Assembly: GCA_021373255.1 (NCBI GenBank)
Contig: JAJFTD010000027.1
Location: forward strand, 27,109 to 91,108
Direction: 5' to 3'
DNA length: 64,000 nt
Origin: a bacterium
GTDB taxonomy: Bacteria > Armatimonadota > UBA5829
Shown here: piece by piece, positions 7,122 through 52,480 of the stretch
Layout of the letters: each line of letters begins with the position of its first letter
How positions within the stretch are numbered: the stretch's first letter is position 1
Translations under genes and position numbers: made by a program
Notes under the pieces: model-generated
The model's database searches: none
What the model was told of the DNA's origin: nothing
The model's input: only the letters and a program-made list of their open reading frames with translations

Positions 7122-9026
7122 CTATCGAAACACCACTGTTCCGAACCTGTCCGGGCTGTGGAAACTGCCGTATGGAACTGCCCACGTGATATACTCCACA
7201 GTGCCGGTTGTCGTCCTGTTCCTCGTAAGGTTTAGAGCCCACTTCGTCCCCGGAGTTGGCGAGTTTGCCCCCAGCGTCTTAAATGGTATGGCAATCTCTG
7301 TTGTATAACCTTGAGCACTAACCCTGGACATAGTTTGCCAATTGCCGTTCCATCCGGGATTGAATACTTTCTGGTCGAACATCGTTCCCAGCGTGTTGGT
7401 CGACAGATGATAATATGTCCGTCGCTGGTCCGTGGGATCGACGAATACCTCCACTGAATCATCATAAAAAGTCGGTCCGTCCCGCTTGGTTACCGTCGCC
7501 TTGATCTTATCCGCCAACGGCTCTGTGGCATTAAAACCTATATACACATTCGTATCATCATAAGTAAGTAAAGCCGTGGTTCGCACCGGCGCTGGTCCGC
7601 CATTGGGAGTATAGCTCAACTCTATCTGCGCTGCCGACTTCCATCCGGGGTCATCAAGATTCCCGTCTATTGTGATCGGAGACGCTGTCTTTGATATGTC
7701 TACCGCAGGCAGCGGTATTACATTCTCTGGAATATTGAGCGGCGGTTTTGTGGGCGGCATATACGGTGTGTCCTGCTCTCTGTACTGGGCGTAACAGGCC
7801 AGCGCATCAGACTGAGCAGCGAAATGGGTTTCCAGCCTTCGGTCTCCCTCCTTGCGCGCTTGCACAGCCCGGTCGCACAGCAGCATACTCTTCTCCCATG
7901 TATCTCTGAACGGCAGTGATGCCGGTAGTGCATAAGGTCCAGATTTTAGGGCTGATGCCTGTGGTTCTCCGAAGTAGGATGATGCAAACAGCGCCTGCCC
8001 ACTCGTCAGCAGTTCCCGTGTTATTCCGATTTGCTCCACCGTCTGCGCCGGGTTGTCCTTTTGCATGTGCAATCCGATTCCGGGCACGACCAGCGTTTTG
8101 CATTTCACAGCGCACTGCTGTTGAGATACGAGGCGGGTGAAACTCGTGTTGTTGTTCGTATACGCCATCGGGGTCAGGAAGTCTACCCATTTGTTGTCCG
8201 CCCAGTTCACCCAGTTCTGCATCAGGTTCATGCGGGCTTCATCAGGGCTGGAACCGACCGCTGCGGATATCTTCGCTTCCGGCTTGATTGCATGAGTCTG
8301 GAGGGCGATGCGTTGAACAAACGTGTTGACCTGCCGTTCCCTGAACTTGTTCCAAAAGACTTGATCGAGTGTAAGTCTGTCTATGTTTACCGGGTCAATC
8401 CCATACTGCTTATTGAATAGTGATCTAGCCGACTGACCATAGCCATAGGGAATCGGTGATTCAACTTCGTAGCGTATGTAGTCGAGGTGAATACCATCTA
8501 CTTCGTAATTATTAACCAGTTCCGCGAACAGACTCGCTAGAAAATCTCTCGCCTCGGGGATAGTAGGGTCGATCCACAGCCCACCATTCGGCGAAAGCTC
8601 TTCTCCATACTTACTCTGGTTTGCCCAATCCGGGTGAGCCGTTAAAATTGCTCCCCTGTCCTTTGTGTAGCCCACACGGAATACCCACACCCACGGATGC
8701 ACTTCCATTCCCAGCTTGTGGGCCTCGTCGATCATCGGCGGTAGAGGGTCCACTGCTCCCACGAACCTCGGGTCCCTGGCTAACAGCTTGGTGGGGTATG
8801 CGACATACCCGCGTGCTATCACCTCAGGCATGAGCACGTTGATATTGGCCTTATGATATGAGCGCACTAAATCTCGGATGCCGGCATCCGTCTTCGGGAT
8901 GGCGTCGGAATTCACCCACACCGCCCTTACCTCTACCAGTGGGTTCACTTGTTCGTATATAACACCTTCGCTCCCAAACGCCGCGCCTGCAGCAATGGCA
9001 AGCAGAGCAACAATCCATTTCAACAT
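7122..9026 (-). CDS. Secreted glycoside hydrolase-like family 10 (GHL10/DUF187-type) protein with a C-terminal CBM9/DOMON-like carbohydrate-binding domain
   Basis: Signal peptide MLKWIVALLAIAAGAAFG. The VRAVWVNSDAIPKTDAGIRDLVRSYHKANINVLMPEV...HPWVWVFRVGY block is characteristic of the GHL10 TIM-barrel. The C-terminal DGNLDDPGWKSAAQIELSYTPNGG segment resembles CBM9. Start trimmed to the ATG at 9026. Confidence 0.65.
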   Translation of the reverse strand: MLKWIVALLAIAAGAAFGSEGVIYEQVNPLVEVRAVWVNSDAIPKTDAGIRDLVRSYHKANINVLMPEVIARGYVAYPTKLLARDPRFVGAVDPLPPMIDEAHKLGMEVHPWVWVFRVGYTKDRGAILTAHPDWANQSKYGEELSPNGGLWIDPTIPEARDFLASLFAELVNNYEVDGIHLDYIRYEVESPIPYGYGQSARSLFNKQYGIDPVNIDRLTLDQVFWNKFRERQVNTFVQRIALQTHAIKPEAKISAAVGSSPDEARMNLMQNWVNWADNKWVDFLTPMAYTNNNTSFTRLVSQQQCAVKCKTLVVPGIGLHMQKDNPAQTVEQIGITRELLTSGQALFASSYFGEPQASALKSGPYALPASLPFRDTWEKSMLLCDRAVQARKEGDRRLETHFAAQSDALACYAQYREQDTPYMPPTKPPLNIPENVIPLPAVDISKTASPITIDGNLDDPGWKSAAQIELSYTPNGGPAPVRTTALLTYDDTNVYIGFNATEPLADKIKATVTKRDGPTFYDDSVEVFVDPTDQRRTYYHLSTNTLGTMFDQKVFNPGWNGNWQTMSRVSAQGYTTEIAIPFKTLGANSPTPGTKWALNLTRNRTTTGTVEYITWAVPYGSFHSPDRFGTVVFR

Positions 9027-9052
9027 TCTGAGCCCCCAACACGTCAACTGTA

Positions 9053-9082
9053 TTGACGATACGGATTCTTTTACCCTAGAAT
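9053..9082 (+). promoter_or_regulatory. Promoter TTGACG-18-TAGAAT for the Cys-rich ORF/nth operon
   Basis: TTGACG at 9053-9058 and TAGAAT at 9077-9082. Confidence 0.4.
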
Positions 9083-9123
9083 CATGTTGCATTACCGATA
9101 CGCGCAACACAGCGCGTTTCCCC

Positions 9124-9147
9124 GTTTCGGGAACAAGTTCCCGAAAC
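9124..9147. promoter_or_regulatory. 24-bp perfect palindrome GTTTCGGGAAC-AA-GTTCCCGAAAC, a candidate operator. A near-identical copy lies at 35704-35727.
   Basis: Read directly from the sequence. It lies between the -10 element and the RBS of the ORF starting at 9171. Confidence 0.6.
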
Positions 9148-9170
9148 ACCGAAGAAAAAGGAGATCGAAC

Positions 9171-9365
9171 ATGGCCTGTGACAGGACCAATGAAAACAAT
9201 AAGAAATGCACCTGCACTTATTCCGGCTGCTCCAAGCACGGCAAGTGCTGCGAATGCCTGCATTATCACCTGAGTATGGACCAGCTACCTGCATGCTGCT
9301 TCCCCTCTGAGGTCGAAAAGACCTACGACCGCTCGTTTGAAGCATTCATGAGGTGTCATTCATAG
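9171..9365 (+). CDS. Small cysteine-rich protein of 64 aa with 8 Cys, probably metal-binding. It overlaps the nth start.
   Basis: MACDRTNENNKKCTCTYSGCSKHGKCCECLHYHLSMDQLPACCF... RBS AAAGGAGA sits 7 nt upstream of the ATG. The 3' end overlaps nth by 13 nt. Confidence 0.5.
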   Translation: MACDRTNENNKKCTCTYSGCSKHGKCCECLHYHLSMDQLPACCFPSEVEKTYDRSFEAFMRCHS

Positions 9366-10033
9366 TGCCTGAAGAAACTCTCTTACAAAAGCAAGATCGC
9401 CTGTGCAAAATAATCGAGATACTCAGACGTGAATATCCAGACGCCACGTGCACGCTGGACTATACTACTCCGCACCAGCTCATGGTGGCTGCCATCCTGG
9501 CCGCGCAGTGTACTGACGAGCGCGTGAACCAGGTTACACCGGAACTCTTCCGTGAATATCCCGATGTGGAAGCATTTGCCAACGCCGACCAGACCGAGCT
9601 TGAAAACAGAATTCGCTCTACGGGTTTCTTTAAGAACAAGGCCAAGGCTATTATCGCATCAGCCCGTGAGATTATACAGAATTTCGGCGGCCGCGTGCCT
9701 GAAACCATAGAGGAACTGACCAGCCTGAGCGGGGTGGGGCGCAAGACCGCGAACCTGATCATCGGCGACGCCTACAGCAAGCCCGCTGTAATTGTCGACA
9801 CACACGTCAAGCGAATAAGCAAGCGTCTGGGTCTCACCGAAAAAGAAGACCCTACCAAGATCGAGTTCGACCTGCGCGAAATCCTACCCGAGGAGGAGTC
9901 CACTCATTTTAACCATCTTATAGTGGCCCATGGCCGCGCCATCTGCAAAGCGCCCACACCAAAGTGCGAGATTTGCCCATTGGTAGAGCTTTGTCCCACC
10001 GGCAGACAGAGAATGTCGCTAACATTGCAGTAA
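9353..10033 (+). CDS. nth: Endonuclease III (DNA-(apurinic/apyrimidinic site) lyase, HhH-GPD with 4Fe-4S)
   Basis: HhH-GPD core LMVAAILAAQCTDERVNQVTPELF...LTSLSGVGRKTANLI...DTHVKRISKRLGL. C-terminal FCL cluster C-x6-C-x2-C-x5-C (CKAPTPKCEICPLVELC). The start appears to be the GTG at 9353. Confidence 0.9.
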   Translation: MSFIVPEETLLQKQDRLCKIIEILRREYPDATCTLDYTTPHQLMVAAILAAQCTDERVNQVTPELFREYPDVEAFANADQTELENRIRSTGFFKNKAKAIIASAREIIQNFGGRVPETIEELTSLSGVGRKTANLIIGDAYSKPAVIVDTHVKRISKRLGLTEKEDPTKIEFDLREILPEEESTHFNHLIVAHGRAICKAPTPKCEICPLVELCPTGRQRMSLTLQ

Positions 10034-10051
10034 GCGTGGCTTGCTGCAATG

Positions 10052-11473
10052 TTACTCTGAGTCCGTCGACGACTGCGCCTTAGGCAGGTAAAGCACTGCT
10101 GCATAGTTTGTCAGGTACTTTTTGGCGACACGCTGGACATCTGCGGAAGTTACCTTCTCCACTGCGTCCGGGAACCCGGCGTACATTTGATAGCTCGCGC
10201 CCACGGTTTCCAGCCATCCAAGCTCAAAGGCTCTATCCAGCATGTGTTGGTGTGACAGCGTGTAAGAGCCAACAGTATAGCCCTTGGCACGCTCCAGATC
10301 TTTTTCTGAGAGCGGCTTGTCCTTGACCTGCTCCACCTGCTCCAGCATCGCATTCTTTACATCATCGAGCACCAGTTCCGGCCCAATGTCGCCAATAGCA
10401 AACTTAAATGGATCGGTGATGATATACGCCACCAAGTGGCTCTGGTATTGCAGCCTGGGATACATAACTCCAACATCGTAGCCCAACCCGCGCTTCTGCC
10501 GCAGTTCACGGAAGAATATAGAGCCCTTGCCCCCGCCTAATGCGTTTGCGAGCACGGACACTGCCGGGTAGTCTTCTGAGTTCACACTCGGCGCGAGCCA
10601 ACCCATCATCAAGCACGCGGCTCCCAAGTCCACTTCCGAAGCGTGGAACTTGCTGCGGTCCAGTTCCTCATCAGGCATTCCCCGATTTGTTGGAAGCTGA
10701 CTCTTTGGAATTCCTGCAAACGCCTTTTCAGCGCGGTCCACAGCTTGATCTACTGTTACATCACCCGCCACAGCTATCACAATGTTGTTCGGCACATAGT
10801 AAGTGGAATGGAATTTGGTCAAATCCCGCGTGTTTGCCAGCTTGATGGTGCGTGCGAAGCCCAACTCCGGCCGCTTATAGCCGTTATCTTCGTAGAGCTG
10901 TTGCTTCAGGTCAAGATAGGCCTTTTCAAATACATCGTCGCTTTGCGCGTTGATGCGCCGCGTGAGGTCGGTCCTGACTTCCTCAACCCACTTGCCCTCG
11001 AAGTTCGCGTCCGTGATACATTCTCCAATCAGCGACATTGCCCTATTGAACATAACTGATGTGGTGACTGTCCTTATCTCAGCAAAGTCCTGGTGCCATT
11101 GCGCTGCGATGTTGCCTCCGACGCCGTCGGCCACCGCAGCGACTTCCTCGGCGGAACTCATTCGTGTGCTGGCCAATAGAAGCTGCGCCACATAGTTGCC
11201 GATGCCTGCGTTCTGAATACTCTCCTGAGCGGTTCCGGTCTTTATCATTGCAATTACCGCTACTATACCGCTGCCCTTTTCCGGCTTTACGACTAATGTA
11301 AGGCCGTTGTCGAGCACCTTCTTCACGATCTCCTGCTTACCCGTTTGTTGGGCGAGGGAAGGGGAAATTGATATAGCGAGAAAGATAGCTATGATTATTA
11401 ATCGCGAAAACACGAGAGGGCGAAAACGCGAAAATGGATTTCCTATTTGTTGATTTTTAACGCGTCTGGTCAT
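10052..11473 (-). CDS. M16-family peptidase subunit lacking the HxxEH motif (non-catalytic partner). Secreted.
   Basis: Insulinase-like fold (NGLTLVVKPEKGSGIVAVIAMIKTGTAQE...YYVPNNIVIAVAGDV) without the zinc-binding HxxEH. Its start ATG overlaps the upstream gene's TGA (ATGA). Confidence 0.8.
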   Translation of the reverse strand: MTRRVKNQQIGNPFSRFRPLVFSRLIIIAIFLAISISPSLAQQTGKQEIVKKVLDNGLTLVVKPEKGSGIVAVIAMIKTGTAQESIQNAGIGNYVAQLLLASTRMSSAEEVAAVADGVGGNIAAQWHQDFAEIRTVTTSVMFNRAMSLIGECITDANFEGKWVEEVRTDLTRRINAQSDDVFEKAYLDLKQQLYEDNGYKRPELGFARTIKLANTRDLTKFHSTYYVPNNIVIAVAGDVTVDQAVDRAEKAFAGIPKSQLPTNRGMPDEELDRSKFHASEVDLGAACLMMGWLAPSVNSEDYPAVSVLANALGGGKGSIFFRELRQKRGLGYDVGVMYPRLQYQSHLVAYIITDPFKFAIGDIGPELVLDDVKNAMLEQVEQVKDKPLSEKDLERAKGYTVGSYTLSHQHMLDRAFELGWLETVGASYQMYAGFPDAVEKVTSADVQRVAKKYLTNYAAVLYLPKAQSSTDSE

Positions 11474-34039: not shown

Positions 34040-34654
34040 TTGGGTTACAGAGTCCTAGTAGTAGAAGACGATCCGGTAGTGGCAGTTGGTATTGTGTCGA
34101 TTCTCCAGGAGGCTGGTCATGAAGTTACTGGTGTGGCGAGAAGTGGCGAAGAGGCTTTGGAGATATCGGCGAGCAATTCTCCAGAGATAGCGCTGGTTGA
34201 TGTGAAGCTGCCTGGTATGGACGGCATCAAGACTACGCGGAAGTTGGTCGAGCAGGGCAGCCCGGCGGTCATTATGCTGACTGCATATGCCGACAAGAAT
34301 TTGGTCGAGGGTGCGGCTCAGGCAGGAGCGTTTACTTATCTGCTCAAACCTGCTGATAAAGAGACGTTACTCGCCAATCTGGAGATTGCTACAGCCAGGT
34401 GGTCGGAGTTTGCTGAACTGCGAAAGGAAGCAGAAGACACCCGGACGGCGTTAGAGACGAGAAAGCTGTCGGAACGTGCAAAGCACGTAATGATGGAGCG
34501 GTTGTCCTGGAGTGAAGAGACCGCATTTGCACACATGCGCCATAAGTGCAGGAATCAGAACAAGACAATGCATCAGGTGGCTGAAGAGATTATCGCTGCT
34601 GATGAAGCCTTTATGGGGGTTATAGACAAAGACCCTCCAAAGAAAGATAAATAG
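34040..34654 (+). CDS. ANTAR-domain response regulator (REC + ANTAR, AmiR/NasT-type antiterminator)
   Basis: REC domain with the phospho-acceptor motif (VLVVEDD...IALVDVKLPGMDG). The C-terminal ANTAR motif is LETRKLSERAKHVMMERLSWSEETAFAHMRHKCRNQNKTMHQVAEEII. TTG start with RBS AGGGAG. Confidence 0.85.
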   Translation: MGYRVLVVEDDPVVAVGIVSILQEAGHEVTGVARSGEEALEISASNSPEIALVDVKLPGMDGIKTTRKLVEQGSPAVIMLTAYADKNLVEGAAQAGAFTYLLKPADKETLLANLEIATARWSEFAELRKEAEDTRTALETRKLSERAKHVMMERLSWSEETAFAHMRHKCRNQNKTMHQVAEEIIAADEAFMGVIDKDPPKKDK

Positions 34655-35139: not shown

Positions 35140-35577
35140 ATGTCTATCGGAGTTGATTCCATAACCACAGTCTCTGTCAAGAGTTGCCCGGACTACCTTT
35201 CTCACCTCAGGCTCATTATGTCCTGTGTGGCCGACAGTGTCGGGATGGACCAGCAGGAGGCTGATGAAGCAAGGCTGGCTGTTACCGAAGCCTGCGTTAA
35301 TGCAATCAAGCATGGATCACCTCGCGGTTCAGATGATGTTGTAATGATCACCCTCAAAACCTCGGAAGGCACTATCACCGTGGATGTTACAGATAACGGC
35401 TGCCTGGATGAAGACCAGGTGGAAAAGAGCCGGGGTCTTGGTGTGGGGCTTATGAAGAAGCTGGCTGATAGTGTGCAGTTTGTCAAGCACAAGACCGGGC
35501 TTACAGTCAGGTTGACCAAGCGTGCTAAAAATGCTGACCGGGTGGTGGCCTCGCCGTCACAAATGAGCCGCAATTAG
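35140..35577 (+). CDS. Anti-sigma regulatory factor (Ser/Thr protein kinase, RsbW/SpoIIAB-like GHKL ATPase)
   Basis: N-box AVTEACVNAIKHG and G-boxes VTDNGCLD...GLGVGLMKKLADSV. About 145 aa, which is typical for this family. Confidence 0.75.
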   Translation: MSIGVDSITTVSVKSCPDYLSHLRLIMSCVADSVGMDQQEADEARLAVTEACVNAIKHGSPRGSDDVVMITLKTSEGTITVDVTDNGCLDEDQVEKSRGLGVGLMKKLADSVQFVKHKTGLTVRLTKRAKNADRVVASPSQMSRN

Positions 35578-35663
35578 ATTTTGGTTATAATGTATTTCCT
35601 CCTCTGAGCACGGCAGTGCGTCCCCTGTTTTCGGAATAAGTTTACGAAACGCTTCATATACTG

Positions 35664-35703: not shown

Positions 35704-35727
35704 GTTTCGGGAACTTGTTCCCGAAAC
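35704..35727. promoter_or_regulatory. 24-bp perfect palindrome GTTTCGGGAAC-TT-GTTCCCGAAAC (second copy of the 9124-9147 operator-like element)
   Basis: Identical 11-bp arms with only the central dinucleotide differing (TT versus AA). It lies between the -10 element and the RBS of the downstream gene. Confidence 0.6.
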
Positions 35728-35777
35728 AGAGAACGCGCTATCTCGCTTAAATGATCAGTTTCAACAGGAGTGTCGCT

Positions 35778-38351
35778 GTGTACAGACGTACTCGTGTATT
35801 AATTCTCATTGCATTGGTTGCTTCTTTTTTGCTCGGTTCGATAGCATTTGCTGCGCAGCCGCCTCAAGCTGCCCAAAAACATTTCCAGGCTGCTATGGAT
35901 TATCAGAAAGCTGGAAAGTTTAACAAGGCACTTGATGAATATCGGGCTCTGCAGAAGATTGTCCCCAATTCACCTATTCCGCTGAACAATATGGGCATCA
36001 TCTACATGCGCATGAATCAGTTCAGCAATGCCGAATCTGCATTCAGGAAAGCTCTCGGGCTTGATCCGAAGAACGATTTTGCGCTCGATCAGCTGACCCG
36101 AGTGCTTGTTAGTAGGAACAAGAATCGAGAGGCACTTACTTATGCCAGAAAACTCCTGGGTAAGAAGCCGAAGGATTCCAGCGTGCGTTTCCTGTTTGGG
36201 GTAGTTAATCTCAGATTGAAGAATTATGACGCTGCGGTGGACAGTTTTAAGACCACTTTGCATATGAGCCCTAATAACCCTGAGGCTCTCTACAATCTCG
36301 GCCTCTGCTATGTGCAGATGAAAAAGTGGGGCGATGTGATCGAGACTATGGAGCGCCTTTCAAAGCTGACTCCCGGCATTGGCCAACCGGCTATGATGGC
36401 TGCTTATGCTGCTGAGCAGATTGGCGATAAGGACCGTGCGATTGGGTTCTATGAGTCTGCAGCCAACTCCAAAGACGCCGCTCTTCCAGCGCTGATGAAT
36501 CTTTCTCGCATCTATTCCAAGACCAACAAGGAAGATAAACTCGCTGGAGTACTGACAAAAGTAATCAAGCTATCGCCGAACGATTATAATGCGAACCTTC
36601 AGCTTGGAGCTATTTATTACCAAAAGAACAAGCTAAAAGAAGCTGAGCAGCGATTCCTTGCGGCTCGCAAGTCCAATCCCAAGGATGCTGCGATCAATGT
36701 TCGGCTGGCGTTGACTCAAGTTCGCTTAAACAAGCAGAAAGAAGCTCTTGCCAGTGCAAACGCCGCCCTGAAAGGCGACCCAAAGAGCAAGCCTGCAATG
36801 GAAGTTTACGGTTTCGTGCAGGAGAACAATCGTAAGGCAAACGAAGCAGTGACGATGTATAAGAAGTGGGAGCAGTATTATCCCACTGATCCGCTTCCGA
36901 ACCGTAAATTAGCTGCAGTTTATTGTTACCAGGGCAAGAGTGCTGATGGATACGCTCAGTATGAAAAGGCTATAAAAAAGGCTCCAAAGGATGTGGACAT
37001 TGTTCTGGACTATGCATCTGCGTTGGAGCAATCCCAAGCATTTGACAAAGCCACTGCGCAGTATAACAAAGCCCTGGAGCTTAAGCCCGACTCCGCAGAT
37101 GTTATGATGAAGACTGCGAATTGCCTGCGAAGGCAGTCTAAGAATGATGATGCTATCGCGATGCTCGAAAAGGCTATTAAAGCTGAACCTAAAAACGAGC
37201 AAGTCTACATAAATCTGGCCGGTATCTACCGGACGAATAATAATATAGACAAGACTGCTGAGCAGTATAAAAAGATACTGGAGTTCTCGCCGAAATCGGT
37301 GCAGGCTCTGAACGCGCTTGCAGGCGTATACGATGAGCAGAAGAACTATGACGGCGAGATCGAGATATATCGCAAACTTCAGGAGATCGATCCCAAGAAC
37401 CTTGACTATCTCTCCCGCGTTCCTGCAGTGTATGACCAGGCTGGGAAGTTGGATCTGGCTATAGAAGAATCCAGGAAGATTGTCCAATTTCAGCCCAAAG
37501 AACTGAGTTTCCGCGCTACGCTGGGGAGATACCTTGAGAAGAAAGAAGATTACGCTGGCGCTCTCGAGCAGTATACGGAGATATCGAAGAACGAGCAGCC
37601 TGATCCCAAGGCGTGGGGATTCGAGCACGCTGGTGCAATGCTTGAGAAGTTAAACAAGCCTGATGAGGCTATTGCATCCTATAAAAATGCCGTCACCACC
37701 AAACCTAACTTCGGTGGTTCTCTGCAGGCTCTGAAGAAACTTTACGATGCTCAGAAGAAGACTGATGAGTTCCAAGCTTACCTCGGCACTCTCGTCGAAA
37801 CCGGCAAGCCCGATGCGCCGTATCGTTTTTACTACGACCAGTTCAAAGCTGCCGGTAAGTCTGACGAAGCAACGAAGACACTTGCCGCCCTCGCTCAGAA
37901 GCACGCCGACAACTTCAATCTGCACGGCGTCCTTGCCTCTGCCTACGCTGACAGTGGTCTCAATGACAAAGCTGTGGACGAATACAAGGCGATCATTGCA
38001 AAGAACCCGAATGACGTAAGGTCGAATCGGGAGCTCGGCGCTCTCTACAAGTCGATGGGTAAGGATACGGAAGCGGTGGCTTGCTATGAAGCTGTAAAAG
38101 GATCGGTCTATGGCGATACCAAATTCACCCTGGAGCTTGCCCAGCTTTACGAAAAATTGGGCAGGACTTCAGACGCGATCAAGGCATATAGAGACTACAT
38201 CGCAATTGATCCTGCCAATCAGGAGATTAAGATAAAGGTAAAGCAGTTAGAAAGCGGCAACACCAACCCCGCACCTGCGGCACCTGCCCCCACGATTGAG
38301 GCAATACCTGGACCCATAGTTGCACCTGCACCCCAAACTCCAGCTCCTTAA
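35778..38351 (+). CDS. Large secreted TPR-repeat protein (at least 15 TPR units) with a C-terminal Pro/Ala-rich tail
   Basis: Signal peptide, then reiterated TPR consensus (W-LG-Y...A...F...A-P). The C-terminus is NPAPAAPAPTIEAIPGPIVAPAPQTPAP. GTG start with RBS AGGAG. The alternative start is the ATG at 35751. Confidence 0.8.
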   Translation: MYRRTRVLILIALVASFLLGSIAFAAQPPQAAQKHFQAAMDYQKAGKFNKALDEYRALQKIVPNSPIPLNNMGIIYMRMNQFSNAESAFRKALGLDPKNDFALDQLTRVLVSRNKNREALTYARKLLGKKPKDSSVRFLFGVVNLRLKNYDAAVDSFKTTLHMSPNNPEALYNLGLCYVQMKKWGDVIETMERLSKLTPGIGQPAMMAAYAAEQIGDKDRAIGFYESAANSKDAALPALMNLSRIYSKTNKEDKLAGVLTKVIKLSPNDYNANLQLGAIYYQKNKLKEAEQRFLAARKSNPKDAAINVRLALTQVRLNKQKEALASANAALKGDPKSKPAMEVYGFVQENNRKANEAVTMYKKWEQYYPTDPLPNRKLAAVYCYQGKSADGYAQYEKAIKKAPKDVDIVLDYASALEQSQAFDKATAQYNKALELKPDSADVMMKTANCLRRQSKNDDAIAMLEKAIKAEPKNEQVYINLAGIYRTNNNIDKTAEQYKKILEFSPKSVQALNALAGVYDEQKNYDGEIEIYRKLQEIDPKNLDYLSRVPAVYDQAGKLDLAIEESRKIVQFQPKELSFRATLGRYLEKKEDYAGALEQYTEISKNEQPDPKAWGFEHAGAMLEKLNKPDEAIASYKNAVTTKPNFGGSLQALKKLYDAQKKTDEFQAYLGTLVETGKPDAPYRFYYDQFKAAGKSDEATKTLAALAQKHADNFNLHGVLASAYADSGLNDKAVDEYKAIIAKNPNDVRSNRELGALYKSMGKDTEAVACYEAVKGSVYGDTKFTLELAQLYEKLGRTSDAIKAYRDYIAIDPANQEIKIKVKQLESGNTNPAPAAPAPTIEAIPGPIVAPAPQTPAP

Positions 38352-52028: not shown

Positions 52029-52104
52029 TGGAGCCGACGGAGGGATTCGAACCCACGGCCTGAGCTTTACGAAAGCCCTGCTCTACCTCTGAGCTACGTC
52101 GGCC
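52029..52104 (-). tRNA. tRNA-Thr (anticodon CGT), with encoded CCA
   Basis: Manual fold: acceptor GCCGACG/CGTCGGC, D-arm GCTC...GAGC, anticodon loop TTCGTAA, T-arm GTGGG-TTCGAAT-CCCTC, discriminator T, then CCA. Confidence 0.8.
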
Positions 52105-52113
52105 TAAAATGGG

Positions 52114-52189
<76 letters not shown>

Positions 52190-52319
52190 ACGTCGTTCGA
52201 TTCATGTCGAAGTCGGAGGCTCAAAGCCCACATTATTCCTGATTGCATTGCGGCTACGTCATTATTACTTGCCGTATCCGCGTTTTGTGAATAATGTGGT
52301 TTAGGACCTCCGACCAATG

Positions 52320-52396
52320 TGGCGGGGATGACGAGACTCGAACTCGCGACCTCCTACGTGACAGGCAGGCGCTCTAACCAACTGAGCTACACCCCC
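52320..52396 (-). tRNA. tRNA-Asp (anticodon GTC), with encoded CCA
   Basis: Manual fold: acceptor GGGGGTG/CATCCCC, D-arm GCTC-AGTTGGTTA-GAGC, anticodon loop CTGTCAC, T-arm GCGAG-TTCGAGT-CTCGT, then GCCA. Confidence 0.85.
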
Positions 52397-52404
52397 ACAT
52401 TTAC

Positions 52405-52480
52405 TGGTGGGCGAAGAGGGGCTCGAACCCCCGACATCTTCCTTGTAAGGGAAGCGCTCTCCCAACTGAGCTATTCGCCC
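52405..52480 (-). tRNA. tRNA-Val (anticodon TAC), with encoded CCA
   Basis: Manual fold: acceptor GGGCGAA/TTCGCCC, D-arm GCTC-AGTTGGGA-GAGC, anticodon stem CTTCC/GGAAG with loop CTTACAA, T-arm GGGGG-TTCGAGC-CCCTC, then ACCA. Confidence 0.85.

Follow-up and report, generated by a model that had tools for sequence, protein, structure and literature searches.

The gene for endonuclease III (nth) in this 64,000-nucleotide stretch of DNA (the whole of which is called the window here) is preceded by a short, cysteine-rich open reading frame. This raises the question of what such a small protein does and whether it serves the enzyme encoded directly behind it. The frame, read from ATG 9171 to TAG 9363–9365, gives MACDRTNENNKKCTCTYSGCSKHGKCCECLHYHLSMDQLPACCFPSEVEKTYDRSFEAFMRCHS, 64 amino acids, and a preliminary description had presented it as a conserved-looking protein with a strong ribosome-binding site. 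Both statements were borne out. The Shine–Dalgarno sequence AAAGGAGA (9157–9164) places its GGAG (9160–9163) 7 nt 5' of the ATG, and the product scored 34.6 bits on the Pfam model PF20095 (DUF6485), above its gathering score of 24 (E = 2.7e-8, residues 8–61). ATG 9171 was taken as the start, rather than ATG 9084, because homologues begin M-x-C; the 93-amino-acid in-frame ORF from the latter codon was rejected on this ground and on the ground that its extension would cross the 5' UTR and the palindrome within it. The protein is indeed rich in cysteine, but ten residues were counted (C3, C13, C15, C20, C26, C27, C29, C42, C43, and C61) instead of the eight first reported, C3 having been missed. 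The spacing is C-x-C-x4-C-x5-CC-x-C-x12-CC, with x4 where C-x-C-x5-C had been given. Feature coordinates are collected in Table 1.

Table 1. Features of the DUF6485–nth locus and further copies of its upstream palindrome; positions are those of the window.
Feature	Positions	Strand	Basis or remark
Sigma-70-type promoter TTGACG-N18-TAGAAT of DUF6485–nth	9053..9082	+	Consensus scan, 10/12 matches
REP-like oriented hairpin repeat, GTTTCGGGAAC-AA-GTTCCCGAAAC plus conserved ACC tail	9124..9150	+	5' UTR
Shine–Dalgarno sequence AAAGGAGA of DUF6485	9157..9164	+	Read directly from the sequence
DUF6485-family gene	9171..9365	+	64 aa; PF20095 match, homologues, dN/dS, AF2 pLDDT 94
GAGGTG, probable nth Shine–Dalgarno sequence in the last DUF6485 codons	9350..9355	+	Read from the sequence; putative function
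nth (endonuclease III), second cistron	9365..10033	+	TIGR01083, HhH-GPD
Degenerate third palindrome copy GTTTTCGGAATAAGTTTACGAAAC	35627..35650	+	5 mismatches
Second exact 24-bp palindrome copy, same AA-centered orientation	35704..35727	-	Window search

Homologues with conserved cysteine spacing, set beforehand as a test of the frame, were abundant. A search of 5.8 billion proteins returned 650 homologous 90%-identity clusters, all with PF20095 (best E = 4e-31). The top matches, from Armatimonadota MAGs, were 73–83% identical to the 64-amino-acid protein, and identity to members named DUF6485 by NCBI was 55–83%. When one genome per GTDB species was scanned, at least 596 species held a relative, archaea included. 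These species span Armatimonadota, Planctomycetota, Verrucomicrobiota, Thermotogae, Aquificales, Desulfobacterota-type lineages, and candidate phyla, and 11 of the 80 loci kept were archaeal (Methanocaldococcus, Thermoplasmatota, Woesearchaeota, Methanosarcinales, and Helarchaeota among them). An HMM search of 1.84 billion representatives gave 446 clusters at 50% identity; the best 150 of these were all 47–132 amino acids long and showed no fusion of DUF6485 to another domain, the sole multi-domain case among the representatives examined being a tandem DUF6485 duplicate (P0121). The PF20095 model matched 120 of 121 diverse relatives, and mean column identity was ~60% across 30 members drawn from many bacterial phyla and archaea.

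The protein of the window has the length, all nine conserved ligand positions, and the (E)xTYDRSF motif of this family and, by sequence, is an additional member of the catalogued, uncharacterized family DUF6485. The exact 64-amino-acid protein was not on record in the assembly collection searched, and NCBIfam, PHROGs, and PADLOC gave no match to it. Small proteins of this kind had been said to be usually unannotated, but NCBI calls the relatives "DUF6485 family protein" or "cytosolic protein". A literature search for DUF6485, PF20095, and the conserved peptides returned no paper or experiment on the family. Compared with its four closest relatives, the frame had a pN of 0.09–0.14 and a pS of 0.73–0.81, with dN/dS of ~0.05 where computable and synonymous sites saturated. 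Strong purifying selection evidently acts on the frame, and the Pfam match, the homologous clusters, and this ratio confirm from comparative data that 9171–9365 is a real gene, far beyond chance.

Residues conserved in at least 90% of 121 members were C3, N9, C13, C15, C20, G24, C26, C27, C29, H33, P40, C42, F44, E49, R54, and S55. T51, Y52, D53, and F56 were invariant in the closer 30 members, which defines the conserved motif E49-x-TYDRSF56. In 281 aligned matches, eight cysteines and H33 were virtually always found together, and they make up the candidate ligands (C3, C13, C15, C20, C26, C27, C29, H33, and C42). Co-loss of cysteines was examined in the same 281 matches as a means of assigning metal sites, and the nine were nearly always present together. 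The remaining two cysteines behave differently: C43 varies across the family (C, Y, F, A, V, L, M), being common among close relatives, and C61 is clade-specific, not family-conserved. AlphaFold2 with the 121-sequence alignment gave a model with a pLDDT of 94 and a pTM of 0.76, superseding an earlier 30-sequence run (pLDDT 71). Four short helices were predicted at residues 6–12, 26–34, 46–49, and 56–63. A zinc ribbon or Fe–S knuckle had been named as what such modeling should look for; the model is helical, and the fold search returned no structural match to any PDB chain. The PDB profile search yielded nothing significant, only insignificant matches to eL37 and psalmotoxin. Going by the model, the fold is apparently without a solved analogue. 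The net charge of the protein is near neutral, so composition makes no case for nucleic-acid binding.

Nine invariant soft ligands thus fall within 40 residues as CxC, CC, and CCxC, with no CxxC in the 64-amino-acid sequence, an arrangement that favors a metal–thiolate center. We consider it fairly probable that DUF6485 is a stand-alone small metal–thiolate protein with a general, not Nth-specific, function. The protein, ~65 residues long, would fold around a metal–thiolate center with the eight near-invariant cysteines and the one histidine as ligands. Its site would hold clustered Zn, as Zn3(Cys8His) or as two tetrahedral sites, and the ligand count (8 Cys + 1 His) appears compatible with a nine-ligand, three-Zn site. 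The Zn would stabilize the tiny helical fold, and the invariant E-x-TYDRSF surface would contact a conserved putative partner. Metal binding is suggested by the pattern of conservation, Zn is a putative assignment, and the partner is presumed to exist. The metal-related role suggested in the preliminary description is thus the natural reading of eight invariant cysteines and one histidine, but the specific partnership with Nth that accompanied it was not supported, as discussed below.

An Fe–S cluster is the main rival because the distribution of the family is anaerobe-rich. DUF6485 could be an Fe–S protein, for example with a [4Fe-4S] cluster on four cysteines and a second site on the rest, serving as a small redox carrier or an oxygen or redox sensor. 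The nine invariant ligands within 40 residues are consistent with such a protein, and members abound in anaerobes and thermophiles (Methanocaldococcus, Thermotogae, Sedimentisphaerales, Omnitrophota, WOR-3, Natranaerobius), a distribution that would suit an oxygen-sensitive cluster no less than Zn. One locus has a radical SAM gene as its adjacent same-strand neighbor, and one has an aconitase-family gene there. However, the sequence has no classical CxxCxxC...CP or other known Fe–S motif, and no ferredoxin-like or HiPIP-like fold was matched. Known zinc-cluster and Fe–S Pfam families were absent at E <= 5 for the 121 members, so that no Fe–S family appeared even among weak matches. CxC and CC spacings are also seen more often in zinc- or copper-thiolate clusters; the sites of GAL4, CXC/pre-SET, and metallothioneins use them for clusters with bridging thiolates. 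We regard an Fe–S protein as a possible but rather unlikely alternative to the metal–thiolate protein proposed above.

Upstream of the gene, hexamers of the form TTGAC(G/T/C)-N17/18-TA(G/A)AAT were found in L001–L004, L081, and L083 as in the window, and no such promoter stands before nth in these relatives. This combination points to a bicistronic operon. DUF6485–nth would be transcribed from the sigma-70-type promoter at 9053–9082 through a ~80-nt 5' UTR with an acquired REP-like hairpin, and DUF6485 would be translated from its strong Shine–Dalgarno sequence. The 5' UTR is predicted to fold at −27.6 kcal/mol (z = −3.2). An Rfam search matched no RNA family in the 5' UTR, its sole matches in the window being four tRNAs outside this region, and no intrinsic terminator was detected from 8950 to 10150.

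The 24-bp palindrome reported upstream of the frame is a perfect 11+2+11 inverted repeat at 9124–9147, predicted to form a 10-bp stem, ending 9 nt before the Shine–Dalgarno sequence, with a 4-nt loop. Its perfect dyad symmetry and 2-nt spacer are what an operator of a dimeric transcription factor would have, one specific to DUF6485–nth and to a TPR-protein gene (35751–38351) elsewhere in the window. The second exact copy begins 10 nt after a promoter-like site, TTGACT-N17-TAGAAT, upstream of that gene, and so each exact copy stands between a promoter-like site and a gene. The wider distribution argues against a dedicated regulatory site. The palindrome was absent upstream of DUF6485 in all relatives examined, and the pattern GTTTCGGGAAC-NN-GTTCCCGAAAC was found in 82 metagenome contigs with no recurrent neighbor (no flanking protein cluster in more than three contigs). 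The metagenome unit is oriented, with an (A/G)A center and an ACC tail, and the orientation of this tail relative to genes is random (13 vs. 13). It is mostly intergenic, lies just after gene 3' ends more often than before 5' ends (33 vs. 14), and, in 29 intergenic cases flanked by ORFs on both sides, never stood between divergent genes. Related hairpins are often found next to it, or it forms part of a tandem array; some contigs have 4–6 related copies, and 41 of 80 variant stem positions were compensated on the other arm. Judged from these occurrences, the palindrome is a REP-like dispersed hairpin repeat, not a private operator, and we consider the operator improbable. LexA, CIRCE, and ANTAR-type sites were considered and rejected because none fits the spacing or loop size of the palindrome, and the distribution favors a dispersed repeat. 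An effect of the hairpin on mRNA stability or translation is conjecture.

The downstream gene was confirmed as the 4Fe-4S enzyme Nth that it had been said to be: the product scored 249 bits against TIGR01083 (cut-off 211.7), had a Pfam match to HhH-GPD, and carries the cluster motif C-x6-C-x2-C-x5-C in its translation. The two genes had been described as overlapping by 13 nt. This assumes the longest nth ORF, from the alternative start GTG 9353 inside GAGGTG, but relatives point to a 1-nt overlap, TAGTG. Stop–start overlaps of DUF6485 and nth were TAATG in L081 and L083, ATGA in L002, L003, L004, and L008, and TAGTG in L001, and in relatives gene callers have nth begin at the final base of the DUF6485 stop. 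AAGGTG occupies the position equivalent to GAGGTG in L081 and L083, 9–10 nt before the overlapping ATG. Read from GTG 9365, the Nth of the window was 76% identical to that of L083, with residue 5 aligned to residue 2. Because the closest relatives and the gene callers place the start at the overlap, nth most likely begins at GTG 9365, sharing its G with the TAG of DUF6485.

The translational overlap itself therefore stands as a stop–start architecture conserved in relatives. Ribosomes ending at TAG 9363–9365 would reinitiate at the overlapping GTG 9365, aided by the embedded GAGGTG, and Nth synthesis would thereby be tied to DUF6485 translation; such coupling in vivo is suggested by the gene arrangement. 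Neither GAGGTG nor the 5' hairpin need matter for expression. Shared gene order (DUF6485, nth, two M16 peptidases, and FtsW/RodA) and 65–76% protein identity assign the window to an Armatimonadota lineage that has GCA_039679645.1 as a relative.

Consistent linkage to nth across genomes had been proposed as the check on a partnership between the two proteins. We searched 80 representative species loci (±6 kb) by tblastn with the Nth of the window. The gene was found within 6 kb of DUF6485 in six, each time immediately downstream (Armatimonadota L001, L002, L003, and L008; the unclassified MAG L004; the Abditibacteriota MAG L009), and the three closest metagenomic relatives also pair DUF6485 with nth. 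It was absent within 6 kb at the Armatimonadota loci L023, L048, and L076 and in all other phyla among the 80 loci. The linkage was thus missing in 74 of 80 species. By sequence comparison the DUF6485–nth operon has been passed down within an Armatimonadota/Abditibacteriota clade and does not characterize the family as a whole; in this clade DUF6485 has become a leader cistron for nth.

Elsewhere the neighbors are unrelated. The 133 flanking ORFs fell into 119 different Pfam families, the commonest being HhH-GPD (5), arabinofuranosidase (4), and RuvB (3). Clustering revealed no family-wide neighbor, the largest cluster (7 of 80 loci) being a GH51-like arabinofuranosidase in Phycisphaerae. Tightly linked same-strand neighbors included AspRS, a radical SAM protein, a YbaK-type editing domain, PrmA, prephenate dehydrogenase, aIF2-alpha, an aconitase-family protein, PolX, a U32 peptidase, YmdB, and GH38. 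Four further DUF6485 contexts that we sampled differed again and held no repair gene. Since the nth pairing is clade-restricted, the function of DUF6485 is probably general, not Nth-specific, and the high cross-domain conservation, the lack of fusions, and the idiosyncratic neighborhoods lead to the same conclusion.

This bears on the proposal that the protein is an Nth-specific metal or Fe–S chaperone or, more broadly, a dedicated accessory of Nth and Fe–S DNA-repair enzymes that delivers, protects, or redox-tunes the [4Fe-4S] cluster. The stop–start overlap with nth is kept in ~10 genomes of one clade, and DNA-repair genes stand beside DUF6485 in three other lineages: PolX 3 nt downstream in a Thermotogae MAG (L056), XPD-like helicases divergently upstream in two Thermoplasmatota MAGs (L005 and L032), and RuvB convergently downstream in Phycisphaerae. 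With the same-strand nth of Armatimonadota/Abditibacteriota, this is a soft pattern of about four independent events, inseparable from chance, that leaves some tie to DNA repair conceivable. No repair neighbor extends beyond a single lineage, neither RuvB nor PolX is an Fe–S enzyme, and nth also rides at the end of unrelated operons, such as E. coli rsxABCDGE-nth. Together with the 74 species that lack nth nearby and the absence of repair genes from the additional contexts, these points make a dedicated accessory role very unlikely.

A bolder variant is, in our judgment, a long shot: DUF6485 might be an unseen fold on a trinuclear or mixed metal–thiolate cluster that acts as a redox or cluster-handling partner of DNA-repair enzymes, with Nth output in this Armatimonadota clade stoichiometrically tied to it by the stop–start coupling. 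If true, it would explain why four unrelated lineages have DUF6485 next to Nth, PolX, an XPD-like helicase, or RuvB. Finally, that 9171–9365 is a chance frame, or a leader or untranslated part of an nth with its real start upstream, is suggested only by the shortness of the ORF and its overlap by the longer nth ORF from GTG 9353, and comparative data have already refuted it: the protein matches PF20095 and has homologues at 55–83% identity in two domains of life, synonymous change is saturated against ~10% nonsynonymous change, the ORF has its own Shine–Dalgarno sequence and promoter, the longest nth ORF matches the nth profile only from its residue 17 onward, and in relatives nth begins at the overlap.

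As a discovery the gene is ordinary, the family being already in Pfam and its orthologues named by NCBI. The remaining interest is in the function of DUF6485 and its apparently unsolved fold. With nine invariant metal-ligand candidates, this unusually conserved small protein makes a well-defined and inexpensive subject for metal analysis and for solving a structure. For the Armatimonadota lineage, annotation should place the nth start at the 1-nt overlap, and the REP-like hairpin family, widespread in metagenomes, may deserve its own description.

Compared with other PF20095 members, the protein of the window shares their length, eight-Cys/one-His pattern, and TYDRSF motif, and departs from them in no essential way; it differs in its two extra non-family cysteines (C43 and C61) and, from most members, in that its gene apparently shares an operon with nth. 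Zinc–thiolate domains (Zn3Cys9 in CXC/tesmin and pre-SET, Zn2Cys6 in GAL4, and SmtA) are likewise short and built on CxC, CC, or CCxC with nine ligands, whereas the predicted fold of DUF6485 is helical and one of its ligands is a histidine. The C-x-C-x4-C...C-x-C string resembles a CXC domain, which we take as a lead only; CXC (PF03638) and pre-SET (PF05033) identities were rejected, as neither gave a Pfam match at E <= 5 in 121 members or a fold match. A 2x[4Fe-4S] ferredoxin or other classical Fe–S identity was rejected on the lack of CxxC, of any Fe–S Pfam match at E <= 5, and of a fold match. Similarity to the eL37 zinc ribbon (PF01907) was weak but recurrent over residues 23–60, with a PDB profile E of 0.03–0.05 and matches in 3 of 121 members (best E = 0.0047), and the two share YHL, C-x-(F/Y)-P, and Y-x-x-S strings. 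It was also rejected, as the aligned stretch is helical in the model and neither a fold match nor a significant profile match was obtained.

The archaeal C(P)XCG micro-proteins HVO_2753 and HVO_0758 are, like DUF6485, stand-alone, cysteine-rich, free of any further domain, and shorter than 70 amino acids, and their roles, too, are difficult to read from context (PMC11241148, PMC10716476). The title of one report states that most predicted zinc-finger proteins bind zinc and that several do not (PMC11241148). HVO_2753 and HVO_0758 use CPxCG knuckles, which are absent from DUF6485, and have no sequence or fold relation to it. The palindrome resembles REP/BIME elements in being a short, GC-rich, dispersed intergenic hairpin found preferentially after gene ends, often clustered or in tandem, with compensated stems; in contrast to them, the two exact copies in the window occupy 5' leaders, not sites after 3' ends.

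A parallel to the gene order is offered by E. coli, in which the rsx genes upstream of nth are annotated as the SoxR [2Fe-2S] reducing system, a redox system. Unlike the 64-residue soluble DUF6485 protein, the Rsx proteins are unrelated membrane and flavo/Fe–S proteins, and the rsx–nth arrangement is generally seen as co-transcription on which Nth has no known functional dependence. As in the window, nth of E. coli K-12 is promoter-distal and overlaps by 1 nt the stop codon of the gene before it, rsxE.

The last codons of DUF6485, the 64-aa cysteine-rich protein gene that precedes nth (endonuclease III), probably also carry the nth ribosome-binding site, judging from the sequence. At window positions 9350-9362, the C-terminal residues R60-C61 are encoded by AGG TGT, which coincides with a GAGGTG motif. 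Both residues are clade-specific, and C61 is not one of the family cysteines. Because its codon overlaps the signal, C61 may be a by-product of the embedded GAGGTG and not a ligand. One homologue representative (P0121, 128 aa) contains two tandem DUF6485 domains, a hint at possible dimer formation by the protein with a single domain.

The palindrome upstream of DUF6485 belongs to a REP-like hairpin repeat whose oriented unit reads GTTTCGGGAAC-(A/G)A-GTTCCCGAAAC-ACC. The window has three copies, 82 metagenome contigs carry the repeat, and loci L084-L163 are examples outside the window. The repeat is frequently tandem or clustered, as in the 92-nt two-hairpin unit of L129 and the six related copies of L109, and its stem variants are compensated (e.g., GTATCGGGAAT/ATTCCCGATAC). 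Degenerate and exact copies bracket a promoter-like site of the TPR gene, which lies in series with genes for an ANTAR-type response regulator and a HATPase_c_2 protein.

Coordinates of features in the window and in loci carrying DUF6485 homologues
Feature	Position	Orientation or placement	Lineage or source
REP-like hairpin repeat copies	window 9124-9150, 35704-35727, 35627-35650		
ANTAR-type response regulator gene	window 34040-34654		
HATPase_c_2 (anti-sigma-factor-like kinase) gene	window 35140-35577		
TPR protein gene, 866 aa	window 35751-38351		
Four-tRNA gene cluster	window 52032-52480	minus strand	Rfam
PolX	L056:1749-3455	3 nt downstream of DUF6485	Thermotogae MAG
XPD-like helicases	L005:925-2850, L032:430-2334	divergent to DUF6485	Thermoplasmatota
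RuvB	downstream ORFs of L014, L021, L030	convergent to DUF6485	Phycisphaerae

DNA-repair genes other than nth adjoin DUF6485 in separate lineages (see table), with too few independent events for enrichment to be called. Downstream of nth, the two closest relatives both carry an inserted MNT-HepT (nucleotidyltransferase/HepT-like) toxin-antitoxin pair before the M16 peptidase genes (L081:1048-1684 and L083:1181-1817). The window has no such pair after nth, which ends at 10033, the M16 gene ending at 10052.

The DUF6485-nth junction varies among relatives. In an Abditibacteriota MAG (L009), the genes do not overlap, and a 50-nt spacer (L009:6196-6245) holds an 8-bp hairpin (ACGGCACC...GGTGCCGT) with a 3' arm that overlaps the GGAGG preceding nth, possibly an alternative form of translational control. 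The downstream nth appears frameshifted at L003:6186-6843, where tblastn matches it as two segments that differ in frame, and appears to have a shortened N-terminus at L082:5362-5895 (177 aa called, 164-nt gap), reflecting either assembly errors or nth decay in some relatives. In E. coli K-12 (L173; NC_000913.3, 1711523), nth starts on the final base of rsxE, so that stop and start overlap by 1 nt, just as we infer for DUF6485 and nth in the window.
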